From positions 1,408,001 to 1,472,000 of the forward strand of contig CAXXLZ010000001.1 of NCBI GenBank assembly GCA_963675595.2: a stretch of 64,000 nt of DNA, read 5' to 3'. The notes below the pieces were generated by a model. It was not told the origin of the DNA, ran no database searches, and worked only from the letters and a program-made list of their open reading frames with translations. How positions within the stretch are numbered: the first letter of the stretch is position 1; every line of letters begins with the position of its first letter. Below are positions 28,286 to 31,711 of this stretch, one piece after another. The position numbers and the translations under genes are program-made. Source of the stretch: Thermodesulfobacteriota bacterium (GTDB lineage Bacteria > Desulfobacterota > Desulfarculia > JACQYL01).

Positions 28286-30262
28286 TTAACGTTCCGCTTT
28301 TTCGGTGAGTAGGATGGGAATGATCTTTTCGATAAAATCTTTGGCGAGGTAGGCTTGAACGCCTTGAATGGTGAGGAGTGATTGGATTTTGGTGAGGGCT
28401 TCGGGGTTTGTCGCGATCATGAACTTCTGAATGGAGGCGTGGTTCGAGAGGGTCTCGACGTTCTTCCTGATGTCCGATTTTCCGGTCTCGACCTGAACCG
28501 CCAAACCACCGTTCCAGTCCGCCACGAGATCGAGATTGTCTTTTTCCAGGAACACTCGGCAGTGCCCGGCAAGCGCCAGTCGGATTCTTTCGACCCAGTA
28601 GTTGTGCTCTACTCCGCCCCGAACTCGAGAATTCTCGAGTTTCAGGCCTTCTCGGTGGAGCTGCTCTCCGGCCTGCGGCGTCAATTCAAAGAGCCGGTTT
28701 CGATCCACAAGAACTTCCTTGAGCAGGCCTTTCTCCATGAGACCGTCCAGGCAGAGGGTTCCCTCCCGCGGGTTCATTCCGAGCTTCTTGTAACGTTTTT
28801 GAACTCCGTCGAAAGGATGACGCGCGATGTCATCCAGCAGAATCCGCTCCATGGGGGAGAGTGTTTCCGGATTTGAAATCTCATGAAAGGAGTTTATTTC
28901 CGGCTTTAGAGCTTGGTTTGGATATTCATTTCCTGAAGAAGAGTTTATTCTAGTTTGTATGACTTTATCCCGGATCATTCCCTTCTCGATTTTGAATTCC
29001 GGCACCGTTATCAGGAACGGAAACGGGACCCTTCCGGTCTTCACAATGGCCTCTCCCACCTTGAGCATGCCGTAGTAAGTCTCATTCCCAATGGGAATGA
29101 GCTGGGAACGGCTCAAACTCGAGAAATCTTGAGACAGAGAGGTTTGAAAGCCGATCCGGGTGTAGACATTCCCAAGAGCTGAGACTGAGACTTTGTGGGG
29201 ATGCTGATCGAGAATCACGATGCCTTCCCCGAGTTCCCTGATCTCCCTCATCATGACGTCCGTGATATCCTCTTCCTTGCTCGTTCGAAGGAGCAGGTGA
29301 TGGGCTTCCTCAATGACGATCATGTGCTTTAGAATCTCTCTTTCCGGTTCCTGCATCCGGTAGAAATAGATCCAAAGAAGCAGGCTTCCGATGATGAAAG
29401 TCTTGTCCGAATCCGAAAGTCCGTCCAGTTCCAGGATCACGTTTTTCCAGAGCAGTTCCGGGATTGAAATGGGACTGAGACTGGGACTGGGACTGACGCT
29501 GGGAGATTGAAAATTCACAACCTCGTTCAGGCCCGGGAAGGTGAGGCTGTTCAGGGTTCGCTTGGCGGAACTCAGCCAAAGCATTTCTCTGCCTCGGCGG
29601 TTTTGCTTGTCGATATAGCGCTTCATTTCCGCGAAGTCGGGCAGGCTCATGGCGTCCATCAAAACGTCCGACGCACCGGGCCCTAACAGATAAGCCTTCT
29701 CGATGATCTCCATCAGCTTCTTCGACCAGATGTGAGACTCCACTCCGGGCGGAGGAATCTTTGGATTGAAACGGAAAGGGCTGACCTCCCTTCCCACGGT
29801 ATAGATCAGGATGTCCTCGTTCCGGAAATCCGGATGTGTCAAAAGGTCCCGGTAGTTTCGTTTCCAGTCGAAGATCAGAAACGGAATCTTCGCCTTGACG
29901 AACTCTCCCAGAAGATTCATGCAAGCGGTAGTTTTTCCGGAACCGGTCTGCCCGAAAAGTCCCACATGGCGAATCAACTCGTCCTTTCTGAGACCGAAAG
30001 GATAGAGCTTCTTGCCGCAATAGGAGACGTGTCCGAGCTGCAATTGCCCGGCCGCTTCATCTTTCCCAGGCGGCGGCAGCATAACGGCGTTCTCGAACGC
30101 CACTCCCGTATGCTGCAGGAGCATGGAATCGACCATGGATTCGATCTCGCGCTTGGCTCTCGGATTCTCCTCTATCTGATAAAGCGACCACAGAGCCCGA
30201 AGTTCTCCTGAAGAGACGAAGGGCTCGAGCCGTCTCAGTTTTTCGGCAACAGTTACGATCAT
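28286..30262 (-). CDS. HerA/DUF87-family (FtsK-HerA superfamily) ATPase with C-terminal wHTH and restriction-endonuclease-like domain
   Basis: RHVGLFGQTGSGKT, FLIFDWK..YR, Walker B MIVIEEAHHL, REIRELGEG...DQHP, and a C-terminal H......NLDLVA......AVQVETG. Confidence 0.85.
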   Translation of the reverse strand: MIVTVAEKLRRLEPFVSSGELRALWSLYQIEENPRAKREIESMVDSMLLQHTGVAFENAVMLPPPGKDEAAGQLQLGHVSYCGKKLYPFGLRKDELIRHVGLFGQTGSGKTTACMNLLGEFVKAKIPFLIFDWKRNYRDLLTHPDFRNEDILIYTVGREVSPFRFNPKIPPPGVESHIWSKKLMEIIEKAYLLGPGASDVLMDAMSLPDFAEMKRYIDKQNRRGREMLWLSSAKRTLNSLTFPGLNEVVNFQSPSVSPSPSLSPISIPELLWKNVILELDGLSDSDKTFIIGSLLLWIYFYRMQEPEREILKHMIVIEEAHHLLLRTSKEEDITDVMMREIRELGEGIVILDQHPHKVSVSALGNVYTRIGFQTSLSQDFSSLSRSQLIPIGNETYYGMLKVGEAIVKTGRVPFPFLITVPEFKIEKGMIRDKVIQTRINSSSGNEYPNQALKPEINSFHEISNPETLSPMERILLDDIARHPFDGVQKRYKKLGMNPREGTLCLDGLMEKGLLKEVLVDRNRLFELTPQAGEQLHREGLKLENSRVRGGVEHNYWVERIRLALAGHCRVFLEKDNLDLVADWNGGLAVQVETGKSDIRKNVETLSNHASIQKFMIATNPEALTKIQSLLTIQGVQAYLAKDFIEKIIPILLTEKAER

Positions 30263-31029
30263 TGAAATTCCCTCTCACACCATCCACCGCATAGACAGGG
30301 GTAGTCCTCTTCACGCTCCGACTCGGTCAGCTCGTGCATTCGGCGGATTTCTTCCGCAGCCCAATCCACGAGTTCTTGGGTAGGCTTGAAAACCTTGGGA
30401 TTGTCTTTGGAGGATGGGAATTTCAGGAAATGGACTGAGACTCGATCGGGAAGTTTTCCGTGCACTTCCTGCTCGAGGAGGGCGTAGATCGCAAGCTGGA
30501 GTTTGATGCCGGGGGTAATGTCCTGGTATTTCGAAGTCTTATAATCCCTGATCTCGATGAATTCTCGAGAATAGCGGGCATCCACGATACCTTGGGCACC
30601 ATGAAGTTGACTCAATAGCCGTTTTTCCGGCTCAGGCGGGCTTCTTCCTCTGCTTACTTCTCGGATAAACTGGTGAAGCCAGTTCAAAGCCATCTTCCTG
30701 GCCTCGACGAGTTGCCCTTCGGCCTCGTCCCGACCGCCGGAGAGCTTCCGAATCTCGAGAATTCTCGAGTTCCACAGGAAATCCACCCTGTCCAGTATTC
30801 GACTTCGCGCATCTGCGTAGGGCGCGTCGAGAAACTCGGGAGTATATGCCCGAACAAAGGCTTCCGCAGCCTGGTGAACCACCTGCCCCACGATGAAGCA
30901 CATCTTGGGTTTGGTCTTCAGTTTCCTGACGTATCTAAGATAGAACTTTCTCGGGCATCCCCATCGGAACTGCGCATCCTTCTTATAGGAAAGAATCGCC
31001 GACGGGCTCAGGATTCGCTTGAAGGTCAT
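30259..31029 (-). CDS. PD-(D/E)XK nuclease, RecB/AddB/Cas4-like with Fe-S staple
   Basis: LSPS....CPRKFYLRY, G.VVH, GIVD, IRDYKTS, QLAIYALL and C-terminal CLCGGWC. Its stop overlaps the HerA start (ATGA). Confidence 0.88.
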   Translation of the reverse strand: MTFKRILSPSAILSYKKDAQFRWGCPRKFYLRYVRKLKTKPKMCFIVGQVVHQAAEAFVRAYTPEFLDAPYADARSRILDRVDFLWNSRILEIRKLSGGRDEAEGQLVEARKMALNWLHQFIREVSRGRSPPEPEKRLLSQLHGAQGIVDARYSREFIEIRDYKTSKYQDITPGIKLQLAIYALLEQEVHGKLPDRVSVHFLKFPSSKDNPKVFKPTQELVDWAAEEIRRMHELTESEREEDYPCLCGGWCEREFQ

Positions 31030-31187
31030 TTTGATCGGTCGTAACGGCTCCGCACCTGCATTTCCCTCACAAAGTACACGATCACTTTTTCCAGTTGATG
31101 TTTTTCCATGGCGAGCGCGAAGGCTCCAGGCACTTCATAGAGCTTCTCCACGTCCGTCATGGTGACGTCCTTATATTGGTATTTCAT
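31026..31187 (-). CDS. Small protein (53 aa) not in the ORF track
   Basis: Translated by hand: MKYQYKDVTMTDVEKLYEVPGAFALAMEKHQLEKVIVYFVREMQVRSRYDRSK*. It has a GGAGG SD and fills the gap exactly, with an ATGA overlap to the nuclease. Confidence 0.6.
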   Translation of the reverse strand: MKYQYKDVTMTDVEKLYEVPGAFALAMEKHQLEKVIVYFVREMQVRSRYDRSK

Positions 31188-31189
31188 TC

Positions 31190-31711
31190 TCAGGTTTTTC
31201 CTCCCAGCAGCTTGGCCTTCTCCTCTATCGACCTCCGGTACTCCACGGTATCCCTGAGTTCCTTGCCCAAAAACAGAATGTCCCTGAAATAGGCGGCAAG
31301 TTCCATTCTCCGGTCCCGCTCGAGATCGATCTTCCGCGTCTCCAATCCGATCCAGTCCCGGTCCCTTCGATAGACCTTGTAGCCCATCTCGAAAATAAGA
31401 TTCTGGCAGGCGCAGAGATCCCGCTCGATGCCGTATAGGTTCTCCTCCTTGATCAGCCTCCGCTTATCGATGGCTTCGATCACGGCTTCGATCCGATCTT
31501 CCCTCCTTTGAATCTTCGCTCCCAACATCCCTTCCAGGCTCAGAAACCCCACACTTTTTTCCGAGGGCACACCTTCGTAAACAGAGGGGGACGCCAAGTA
31601 GGACGCTCCGCTTCCGTAAGGGGAGACCAAGTAAGATGCTCCGCTTCCGTAATCAGGCGTGGGTCGTATAGGAGAGTACGAATCAAGCCGCGAAAAATAA
31701 TCATCACTCAT
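31190..31711 (-). CDS. Hypothetical coiled-coil protein, first gene of the nuclease-HerA operon
   Basis: ATG 31711 lies ~25 nt after a TATA-like motif. The C-terminal half is charged and helical. Confidence 0.65.
   Translation of the reverse strand: MSDDYFSRLDSYSPIRPTPDYGSGASYLVSPYGSGASYLASPSVYEGVPSEKSVGFLSLEGMLGAKIQRREDRIEAVIEAIDKRRLIKEENLYGIERDLCACQNLIFEMGYKVYRRDRDWIGLETRKIDLERDRRMELAAYFRDILFLGKELRDTVEYRRSIEEKAKLLGGKT
31587..31652. repeat. 2 x 33-bp imperfect tandem repeat (YGSGASYLxSP)
   Basis: ggggacgccaagtaggacgctccgcttccgtaa / ggggagaccaagtaagatgctccgcttccgtaa. Confidence 0.9.

Follow-up and report, generated by a model that had tools for sequence, protein, structure and literature searches.

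A HerA-type ATPase with a winged-helix and nuclease-like tail and its coiled-coil partner on a multi-copy, Orc1/Cdc6-encoding block of a Thermodesulfobacteriota genome

A four-gene operon was analyzed in a stretch of 64,000 nucleotides (hereafter the window; GenBank assembly GCA_963675595.2, contig CAXXLZ010000001.1, positions 1,408,001 to 1,472,000) from a Thermodesulfobacteriota bacterium. It encodes a coiled-coil protein (CC), a protein of 53 amino acids (aa), a Cas4/RecB-like nuclease, and a HerA-type ATPase. As judged from sequence comparisons, this operon is a four-gene version, restricted to one clade, of a cassette that is widespread in a two-gene form, CC and the ATPase, across many bacterial phyla and a few Archaea; in the cassette, the ATPase is translationally coupled to CC. 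The ATPase carries a tail of its own, with a winged helix-turn-helix (wHTH) and a likely PD-(D/E)XK nuclease domain, and its constant partner is CC, not the stand-alone nuclease. We tentatively propose that the cassette is the backbone DNA translocase-nuclease module of an integrative element that encodes an Orc1/Cdc6-type protein.

The four open reading frames (ORFs) were taken from the ORF list and by reading the sequence, and lie on the minus strand at 28286-31711 (Table 1). On the coding strand, a 2-nt gap separates CC from the 53-aa gene (TGA-GA-ATG), and both the 53-aa gene/nuclease and the nuclease/ATPase junctions are ATGA overlaps, in agreement with the coordinates and the coupling described in an earlier reading made from the letters alone (the sequence-only reading). 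When the window copy was compared with its three paralogous copies in the same genome, dN/dS was 0.00-0.25 for all four genes, including the 53-aa gene (0.00-0.12, with dS up to 0.58) and CC (0.08-0.19), and homologues of all four proteins are present in other genomes. The four ORFs are therefore genes and not chance ORFs, and the operon is genuine, tightly coupled, and under purifying selection in all its parts. A promoter scan of 27900-32100 gave no sigma-70-like site, and terminator-like sites in the same interval were no more frequent than in shuffles. An AT-rich palindrome (31726-31745) precedes the start codon of CC. Of 8 sequencing runs from 2 studies, none was listed as containing RNA.

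By sequence and by model, the ATPase is a P-loop ATPase of the HerA/FtsK superfamily and falls in the HerA clade. The Pfam DUF87/HerA central domain matched it with 42.8 bits (cut-off 23.2), and the Walker A (29930-29953; G107, G109, K110, and T111) and Walker B (E318 and E319) residues are invariant in 48 ATPase sequences. The best match of the ATPase profile in the PDB was Sulfolobus HerA (4d2i, 2.3e-15), followed by 8yho, 9x1l, 9c1m, 8xau, 8wiv, and 8j4u, several of which are anti-phage HerA-like proteins; the matches to DptH, EccC, and IcmO/DotL were far weaker than those to HerA. An AlphaFold (AF2) model built from the 48 sequences had a mean pLDDT of 89.8. Foldseek searches with this model retrieved HerA 4d2i (1.3e-14), Sir2/HerA, HerA-NurA, HerA-DUF4297, and TdpAB, the probability being 1.00 for HerA, VirB4, TrwB, and the C-terminal domain of DndH, and the highest target-normalised TM-scores were those of the DndH C-domain (7es4, 0.72), VirB4 (4ag6, 0.67-0.69), and TrwB (1e9s, 0.59). 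The HerA/DUF87 assignment of the sequence-only reading is borne out by the DUF87 match (8.6e-11), by the invariant Walker motifs, and by archaeal and anti-phage HerA proteins as the best solved relatives.

None of the curated models of PADLOC or NCBIfam claims the ATPase. The HerA equivalogs scored 16.8 bits (NF040819, cut-off 970) and 22.6 bits (NF040937, cut-off 800), and the anti-phage HerA model NF042943 (HerA_antiphage) scored 35.6 bits against 800. The alternative, raised with the sequence-only reading, that the protein is the VirB4/VirD4 ATPase of a known conjugation system was ruled out, with 11.6 bits for VirB4 TIGR00929 (cut-off 643.1) and 17.3 for TrwB_AAD_bind (cut-off 20.5). The best NCBIfam match was CedD (NF053655; 3.3e-20, 72.3 bits, cut-off 600), described as a HerA/FtsK ATPase, VirD4-like, that Sulfolobus requires to import DNA (PMC11823120), and the likeness is at superfamily level only. 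A PADLOC search, proposed with the sequence-only reading as a check for a defence system, returned weak HerA, DndH, and mad8 matches to the ATPase, and no model claimed the operon proteins. Its best match, mad8 (44 bits, 4.7e-12), is unspecific because the same model also matches an unrelated KaiC-like ATPase of the element (2.9e-11); none of the other mad models matched among 34 element proteins.

In the model, a three-helix element (residues 5-12, 18-30, and 34-52) and one beta-hairpin (74-91) precede the RecA-like core, which contains a helical insertion; no HAS barrel is evident in this N-terminal region, for which no separate domain search was made. Within the insertion, residues ~253-264 (29454-29500) form a Ser/Pro-rich stretch of low model confidence that is absent from all 16 other sequences of alignment A1. 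The nucleotide alignments between the four genome copies break at the same place and the ATPase ORFs measure 652-682 aa across these copies, which suggests a variable simple repeat.

A low-confidence linker (residues 445-465) joins the core to 193 residues that are conserved across the ATPase family and that were overlooked in the sequence-only reading. Modelled alone with AF2, this tail (residues 466-658) reached a pLDDT of 92.3. Its first 76 residues matched the MarR family in VIA-align with Z 11.5 and an rmsd of 1.7-2.3 over 74-76 residues, a result that concerns the wHTH and not the nuclease subdomain, both VIA-align runs on the tail being filled by winged-helix matches; the tail profile also matched the MarR-type regulator 4em0 in the PDB (0.014). 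The second part of the tail (residues 546-658) has, by DSSP of the model, the alpha-beta-beta-beta-alpha-beta order of a PD-(D/E)XK core, with acidic residues on strands 2 and 3. Foldseek with the whole tail gave VC1899 (5.2e-4), Can2 (5.9e-4), Bax1, Cdn1, and Ecl18kI, which are multidomain proteins that include a nuclease with the restriction-endonuclease fold. The profile built from 32 tails matched Cas4 4r5q (0.0091), the catalytic strands vDlV...VEIKTG aligning to vDiV...VEIETG of the family, and weakly Hjc 1gef (0.19). Weak Pfam matches were found among the same 32 tails to Mrr_cat (7), MTES_1575 (6), Hjc (5), UPF0102 (4), AHJR-like (3), and NucS_C (2). From the model and these matches, the second domain of the tail is likely a PD-(D/E)XK nuclease domain.

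The residues of this domain depart from the classical motif. H88, W91, E108, and D113 of the tail-domain alignment are invariant in 32 sequences and an ExE is near-invariant, the family motif being EH...E...D-[IL]-V...E-x-E-T-G, with Glu where the classical motif has Lys. The restriction enzyme BamHI has a D...ExE site. In the window ATPase the motif reads D578...Q590-V-E592-T-G-K, and the first E of ExE is replaced by Q. Since there is no canonical (D/E)xK lysine in the window tail and its acidic triad is not intact (QxE, ExE in the family), the nuclease activity of the window's built-in domain is doubtful. The built-in tail is the reason why the ATPase family can be regarded as a motor-nuclease even where there is no Cas4-like gene. 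The tail also aligned in hhalign with proteins from five loci that belong to the Replic_Relax family (PF13814), which we take to be MOBC (probability 68%, E 4.7e-5, 107 columns). This alignment covers the wHTH and the first nuclease helix and ends before the catalytic strands, and PF13814 was not among the 25 listed of the 33 Pfam families with matches in the 32 tail sequences. Searched by itself, the tail domain matched 3,654 representative clusters, and ~11 loci have shorter ATPases of ~550 aa that end before the nuclease domain.

The 1+3 Cys and the DYKT/QxxxY core that had been pointed out in the stand-alone nuclease hold in 11 homologues, in which C25, C245, C247, and C251 (the last three forming a C-terminal C-x-C-x3-C cluster), E135, D150, D162-Y-K164, and Q178-x3-Y182 are all invariant. 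The protein thus carries the motifs of Cas4, that is, four Cys, a D...(D/E)xK core, and QxxxY, and the four Cys would make a putative Fe-S site. Its sole Pfam match is the generic superfamily model PDDEXK_1, and it scored 29.8 bits with TIGR00372 cas4, below the cut-off of 65. The closest virus-family match was PHROG 69 'exonuclease' (5.4e-15), and Cas4 4r5q was matched in the PDB with 3.9e-06. A Pfam scan of 40 window ORFs turned up no cas genes, and the Rfam scan, whose sole match in the window was a group II intron, gave no CRISPR repeat family.

The distribution of the cassette was determined from the ATPase. A word-indexed protein search, in which 8000 candidates were scored, gave 1597 proteins with E <= 0.001; the best 120 relatives are 43-100% identical and mostly 641-679 aa long, seven being shorter (403-607 aa). 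A scan of species-representative genomes gave 177 confirmed relatives, and the best 80 loci were kept (numbered with an L below). According to their record titles, these best 80 of 177 belong to Thermodesulfobacteriota, Planctomycetota, Verrucomicrobiota/Lentisphaerota/Kiritimatiellota, Chloroflexota, Acidobacteriota, Aminicenantes, Zixibacteria, Ignavibacteria, Calditrichota, Hydrogenedentota, Elusimicrobia, Nitrospirales, some Proteobacteria, and four archaeal bins; the nearest relative among them is titled Syntrophobacteraceae (82% identity) and the next ones are Thermodesulfobacteriota. Fifteen of the 80 loci, with less than 1.5 kb upstream, were set aside, and partners were counted on the remaining 65.

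With an iterated HMM, a CC homologue was found upstream of the ATPase, in a same-strand chain, in 62 of the 65 loci, from many phyla, and in L060, which is among the three loci missed, a CC-like ORF can be recognised by eye. CC is the ORF adjacent to the ATPase in 50 loci. In 45 of these 50, the CC stop and an ATPase start codon in frame are no more than 20 nt apart, a count that favours small gaps as the script took the start nearest to the CC stop. Only 10 of the 65 loci have the Cas4-like nuclease, placed between the two cassette genes, with an eleventh, partial copy at a contig edge in L015. The constant partner of the ATPase is thus CC. The sequence-only reading had proposed a HerA-nuclease pair and had asked whether the two genes are kept together: for the stand-alone nuclease this largely failed, the pair being confined to one clade, and the association of motor and nuclease would survive through the tail of the ATPase.

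CC belongs to a family without prior description, as judged from database comparisons: it had no match in Pfam, PADLOC, NCBIfam, or PHROGs, and all of its 51 database relatives are unnamed or 'hypothetical'. The protein has a variable Tyr/Pro/Ser-rich N-terminus followed by a conserved helical domain of ~110 aa; in an alignment of 37 homologues R84 is invariant and R135, E137, and D144 are near-invariant. Other starts than the one in Table 1 can be drawn, at GTG 31795 (201 aa) or internally, and the protein collection has a form of 146 aa. In the variable region, a 33-nt direct duplication (18 nt, 94% identical; 31602-31652) repeats Tyr-Gly-Ser-Gly-Ala-Ser-Tyr-Leu. The product of the 53-aa minigene is, from its homologues, a conserved small helical protein restricted to loci with the Cas4-like nuclease. 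Homologues of 48-67 aa lie between CC and the nuclease in nine of the ten nuclease-bearing loci, the exception being L060, and none was found elsewhere in the 80 loci by a six-frame HMM search. No curated family in Pfam, PADLOC, NCBIfam, or PHROGs claims this protein.

The stand-alone nuclease and the built-in motif are related in their distribution. In a tree of 58 full-length ATPases (quick IQ-TREE search, midpoint root), a branch with SH-aLRT 99 separates the 11 nuclease-bearing rows from all others, so that a single insertion of the nuclease suffices to explain them. Within this clade, L060, which is of the E type and has no minigene, branches first; the window and L009 then split from L010 and seven others. 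ExETG was found in all 45 readable loci without a stand-alone nuclease, and QxETG in eight loci (L009 and L011-L017), all of them nuclease-bearing; L010 and L060 have the nuclease and retain E. With the midpoint root, the nuclease would have been gained first and the E-to-Q change would have come later, either twice or in a single step followed by a reversal. The cutting has probably been taken over, in the window's clade, by the stand-alone nuclease with its putative Fe-S site, the tail being kept mainly for DNA binding.

The operon is part of a conserved block of ~26 kb, delimited by blastn against the genome (6.79 Mb in three contigs, 98% complete). The block is present in four copies, the other three (C2:903715-927179, C2:1628647-1658055, inverted, and C2:4271208-4298435) being 88-98% identical in nucleotides. 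The ATPase is intact and the operon complete in each copy, while other segments vary: 13627-19028 and 31494-34886 are missing in one copy and 31878-34028 in another. Pfam matches in the block are to Orc1/Cdc6, PRiA4_ORF3, a response regulator, an FkbM methyltransferase, DUF3150, DUF1257, DUF2958, a zinc-ribbon protein, RadC, and an AAA ATPase interrupted by a group II intron. The Orc1/Cdc6-type protein (12210-13484, minus strand; Cdc6_C 1.6e-24, Cdc6_lid 2.3e-11) is 98% identical in the four copies and has orthologues with 56-63% identity in other phyla.

No tyrosine recombinase was found inside the block. A tyrosine integrase (L089:4502-5614), adjoining recA and alaS, lies ~15 kb to the left of the block and ~5 kb to the left of the window, and a stretch of 1.5-3.8 kb beside it recurs outside the block in the 60-kb flank of every copy, 11-38 kb upstream of the block in three copies and ~41 kb away, on the corresponding side, in the inverted one. 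The block therefore appears to be the conserved part of a larger integrative element. No direct repeat of at least 9 nt is common to the block ends, which have one 10-nt inverted match, and the right end differs between pairs of copies. With recA and alaS beside the integrase and Thermodesulfobacteriota relatives, the genome is bacterial, and the archaeal framing of the sequence-only reading, in which the ATPase might replace a missing MCM helicase, did not hold.

The neighbours of the cassette were grouped by unbiased clustering of all ORFs from the 80 loci and the window, the latter being included in the counts for CC, Orc1/Cdc6, the nuclease, and RadC. CC was found 51 times by BLAST linkage, followed by Orc1/Cdc6-like (24), ArdC-like proteins with ArdC-N and a metallopeptidase (14), tyrosine integrase (12), the stand-alone nuclease (11), a MoxR-type AAA (9) and its unnamed partner (9), RadC (7), Replic_Relax (5), SprT-like (4), DUF6094 methyltransferase (4), and SNF2 helicase (3). 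Restriction-modification and MoxR-VWA genes are present in some neighbourhoods. With tblastn included, a Cdc6-like gene lies within 10 kb in 26 of the 80 loci; for the 34 loci that extend at least 8 kb to each side, the count is 15. In ~10 loci (for example L017, L020, L022, L028, L040, L051, L075, L078, and L086) it stands beside the cassette or diverges from it, and in L027 it heads the same-strand gene run.

In a sample of 400 genomes of the phylum (ATPase E <= 1e-40, Cdc6 E <= 1e-30), the ATPase was present in 10 genomes, Cdc6 of this type in 3, and both in 2. In these two, the copy numbers of ATPase and Cdc6 are similar (2 and 2; 4 and 5-7), and in one of them the genes are 10 kb apart on one contig. 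Three loci were found in each of several other assemblies, and several genomes have three to seven copies. The family is nearly absent from plasmid, phage, and virus collections: two ATPase matches with 26% identity in 72,556 plasmid records, one match in 50,697 phage records that spans 15% of the query, and none confirmed of 76 pattern matches among 2.9 million viral contigs.

The explanation that we favor, tentatively, is that the cassette processes the DNA of its own element for replication or spread after excision. The ATPase would assemble into a ring, as its solved HerA relatives do, the winged helix would place this ring on DNA, and the ring would pump double-stranded DNA with ATP and feed it to a nuclease. 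CC would be an obligatory accessory protein, either a regulator or an adaptor. In most members the nuclease would act in cis, as the built-in domain, and in the window's clade in trans, as the Cas4-like enzyme with its 53-aa companion. There, the Fe-S nuclease would have been inserted between the two core genes, with the 53-aa gene alongside except in the earliest branch, and the built-in E would have become Q later. A backbone function is suggested because there is one cassette per element copy, because the operon is kept in all four copies while other segments vary, because linkage to Orc1/Cdc6 is recurrent and sometimes immediate, and because the neighbours include genes associated with transfer or mobile elements (ArdC-like, integrase, and Replic_Relax).

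Several observations weigh against this explanation. The loci were collected through the ATPase, so that its constancy is partly a matter of ascertainment. Eight of the ten ATPase-positive genomes of the phylum sample have no close Cdc6 orthologue, and the cassette is therefore not tied to one element type. No recognisable transfer apparatus was found in the element, where the Pfam scan gave no mating-pore or relaxase genes, and no membrane segment is predicted in the ATPase model. The PD-(D/E)XK assignment of the tail depends on weak sequence matches and on Foldseek values of ~5e-4; L010 retains the E in spite of its nuclease, and the E-to-Q pattern amounts to one or two evolutionary events. 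Two runs of complex prediction with CC and the full-length ATPase, both given as alignments and with no controls, scored 0.00 and are no evidence either way. The assembly, the DNA binding, and the catalysis of the ATPase are predictions from sequence and model. Replacement by a Cas4-like exonuclease would fit a degradative machine better than a site-specific nickase acting at an origin or oriT, and nuclease-paired HerA ATPases are best known from defence, where exchange of the nuclease is typical.

These last points lead to a serious alternative, which we consider quite possible: the cassette could be cargo of the mobile elements that serves in defence or exclusion, analogous to Sir2-HerA, DUF4297-HerA, TdpAB, DndFGH, and MAD7/MAD8, in which the HerA ring of the cassette would sense or load on foreign DNA and degrade it through the restriction-endonuclease-like or the Cas4-like nuclease, with CC as sensor or regulator. 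After archaeal HerA, the closest solved relatives of the ATPase include anti-phage HerA complexes (8yho, 9c1m, 8xau, 8wiv, and 8j4u), and the Foldseek matches to Sir2/HerA, HerA-DUF4297, TdpAB, and DndH-C, like the weak PADLOC matches, point the same way. The nuclease part is modular, being built in, added as a Cas4-like protein of degradative type, or missing in the ~550-aa form; the phyletic spread is patchy and discordant with organismal groupings; and the cassette occurs in loci beside restriction-modification and MoxR-VWA genes and in genomes without Cdc6. There is also a precedent in MAD7/MAD8, described as a module of ATPase and nuclease (PMC13662399). Against a defence function, however, no PADLOC model claims these proteins, the best match (mad8) being unspecific, and the anti-phage HerA model stays far below its cut-off. 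PADLOC found no known defence genes among 30 further element proteins beyond generic matches. Several genomes hold three to seven copies of the cassette, one per element copy, and its retention in all four copies of the block and its recurrent Orc1/Cdc6 linkage also weigh against this function. A narrower form of the backbone explanation, in which the HerA ring is a replicative helicase recruited by Orc1/Cdc6 in place of MCM while the tail binds or nicks the origin, much as nickase and helicase are united in Rep proteins, appears unlikely. It would account for the ~10 loci where the Cdc6-like gene adjoins or diverges from the cassette, and a nickase-motor is kept alive by the partial similarity of the tail to the Replic_Relax proteins and by the fact that MOBC relaxases are PD-(D/E)XK enzymes. 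However, a Cas4-like enzyme is ill suited to replace a site-specific nickase, the loci with Replic_Relax L026, L042, L072, and L077 keep ExE (in the fifth, L046, the ATPase is cut at the locus end), and most ATPase-positive genomes of the phylum sample have no close Cdc6. We know of no replicative HerA.

A role in conjugation, as a VirD4/VirB4-type ATPase or as a TraB-like pump for double-stranded DNA fused to a MOBC-like relaxase, seems improbable to us. CedD as the best NCBIfam match, with its role in DNA import (PMC11823120), the fold matches to VirB4 and TrwB, and neighbours typical of transferred elements (ArdC-like, RadC, DUF2958, and SprT-like) would agree with it, as would the PD-(D/E)XK nature of MOBC relaxases, which are reported to be relatives of restriction endonucleases (PMC12857230). 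The CedD, VirB4, and TrwB_AAD_bind scores are nevertheless all below their cut-offs, the ATPase model has no membrane segment, and the family is nearly absent from plasmids. VirB4 PF03135, TraG-D_C PF12696, and Relaxase PF03432 had no match in this 98%-complete genome; Replic_Relax PF13814 had none either, a weak blank because this control was positive in no control genome. Least probable of all, in our estimate, is that the cassette is a terminase-like ATPase-nuclease packaging a virus genome, or a cellular pair of the HerA-NurA type for the repair of double-strand breaks. FtsK/HerA ATPases do package some membrane-containing viruses (PMC4158269), and a PHROG 'terminase large subunit' model matches the Walker A region of the ATPase; yet the viral and phage collections are nearly empty of the family and no capsid-like gene was recognised in the element by the Pfam and PHROGs scans. 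HerA-NurA is the founding HerA-nuclease pair, but the HerA equivalogs score only 16.8-22.6 bits against cut-offs of 800-970, the Pfam scan found no NurA, Mre11, or Rad50 nearby, and a multi-copy, element-borne location is unlike that of a housekeeping repair gene.

The cassette has similarities with several known systems. Like archaeal and Deinococcus HerA-NurA, it has an ATPase of the same clade and would follow the same logic of a ring translocase with an operon-encoded nuclease. It differs from them in that 40 window ORFs scanned with Pfam contain no NurA, Mre11, or Rad50 and that the ATPase has an N-terminus of three helices and a hairpin, a wHTH and restriction-endonuclease-like tail, a CC partner, and a location on a mobile element; its distance from HerA proper is visible in the equivalog scores. 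The anti-phage systems (Sir2-HerA, DUF4297-HerA, TdpAB, DndFGH, and MAD7/MAD8), which are among the best matches, likewise combine a HerA-type ATPase with an effector nuclease. None of their partner proteins is present here, with no Sir2 or DUF4297 match in the other three operon proteins, and the nuclease of the window family is fused behind a wHTH or is a Cas4-like gene, in a multi-copy cassette linked to Orc1/Cdc6. The stand-alone nuclease shares with the Cas4/RecB Fe-S nucleases the four Cys, the D...D-Y-K core, QxxxY, and the 4r5q match, whereas it is below the cas4 equivalog cut-off and has no cas or CRISPR context in the window scans. With the MOBC/Replic_Relax proteins the ATPase tail shares a wHTH followed by PD-(D/E)XK, with a partial hhalign match only.

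The integrative and conjugative elements (ICEs) of actinomycetes offer a further parallel. Their TraB is FtsK-like with a C-terminal winged helix, and the window element similarly has a tyrosine integrase, an initiator of its own, and one FtsK/HerA motor that ends in a winged helix. The differences are that the motor is of the HerA clade and not FtsK, that it has no membrane anchor, that it has a nuclease domain and a CC partner, and that the initiator is of Orc1/Cdc6 type; the hosts are diverse and mostly diderm, and the element is known here from its genes alone.

Table 1: Positions in the window of the operon genes, the ATPase domains, and the block that carries them.
Feature	Positions	Strand	Basis
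Conserved block carrying the operon, ~26 kb	~10348 to 36125-36496		blastn against the genome
CC, coiled-coil partner	31190-31711	-	173 aa from ATG 31711
53-aa minigene	31026-31187	-	ORF; homologues in other genomes
Cas4/RecB-like PD-(D/E)XK nuclease	30259-31029	-	256 aa; PDDEXK_1 2.6e-16
HerA-type ATPase	28286-30262	-	658 aa; DUF87 8.6e-11
ATPase residues 1-445, HerA/FtsK-superfamily RecA-like core	28928-30262	-	DUF87, PDB profiles, AF2, Foldseek
ATPase residues 466-545, MarR-like wHTH (predicted)	28628-28867	-	AF2, VIA-align, PDB profile 4em0
ATPase residues 546-658, PD-(D/E)XK domain (likely)	28289-28627	-	model, Foldseek, profiles, alignment

Other genes of the element were recorded along with the cassette. 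At the left end of the block are a 145-aa protein (10356-10793, minus strand) and a 282-aa protein with several zinc-ribbon motifs (11130-11978, minus strand), both without family match; they are 38-70% identical across unrelated phyla, more conserved than the ATPase, and usually next to the Cdc6 gene, and from this conservation may be further backbone genes. A 102-aa protein without family match (26811-27119, minus strand) was found by tblastn near the cassette in 10 of the 80 loci, in several phyla and often close to Cdc6. The group II intron (RF00029, 73.4 bits; 21482-23433) consists of an RNA domain (21482-21571) and an ORF for a reverse transcriptase-maturase-HNH protein (21571-23433). 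It splits the AAA ATPase gene into 24019-25032 and 20999-21481, which is a single ORF of 491 aa in L016; the intron is also present in the other genome copies, and the one at C2:4271208-4298435 appears to hold two in tandem. Divergent from the operon, at 31917-33992 (plus strand), are genes for a 289-aa protein with a hydrophobic C-terminus, a 241-aa multi-pass membrane protein, and a 146-aa TPR lipoprotein. Two of the four element copies lack these three genes, and the matches of the membrane and TPR proteins to L009, the closest relative, are weak and partial (32-36% identity), a pattern suggestive of variable cargo.

Between the integrase and the block lie a KaiC-like double-domain ATPase (L089:8517-9980, C1:1406517-1407980), just to the left of the window, and two very large PAS/histidine-kinase hybrids (278-10338). 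Part of the KaiC-like gene is inside the stretch in common with the fourth copy, and the hybrids have no counterpart beside the other three copies; at least the PAS/histidine kinases may be cargo of the larger element. In loci of the Planctomycetota and Ignavibacteria types, proteins of 1280 aa (L027:5204-9046) and 1322 aa (L071:5289-9257) precede the cassette. Neither has a PDB match, and the L027 protein, the only one of the two scanned with Pfam, has no match there either.

A HerA-family motor that works with a nuclease is a kind of machine already known, and is a recurring solution for DNA end resection and immunity. What is new is the fusion of motor, winged helix, and restriction-endonuclease-like domain in one chain, with an obligatory CC of a new family, the insertion of the Cas4-like nuclease and the minigene, and the association with Orc1/Cdc6 in bacterial elements. 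In a limited search of open-access text, we found no description of a HerA-wHTH-nuclease fusion with a CC partner nor of such Orc1/Cdc6 elements in Bacteria. The ATPase family is large, with >1,500 full-length homologues in many phyla and no annotation in the libraries used, and it marks multi-copy bacterial integrative elements with an Orc1/Cdc6-type initiator, which is unusual for bacterial elements. The gain of the Cas4-like nuclease followed by the E-to-Q change would be a natural experiment in the exchange of nuclease modules on a common motor. A bolder possibility, to which we give little weight, is that these are self-propagating integrative elements, present in many bacterial phyla and a few Archaea, whose DNA is replicated and moved by an archaeal-type Orc1/Cdc6 initiator, a HerA-clade motor-nickase, and CC, with neither a type IV secretion system nor a capsid, the Cas4-like nuclease being a clade-specific replacement of the cutter of the motor. 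If true, elements would have a third way of propagating, one that has not been described so far.

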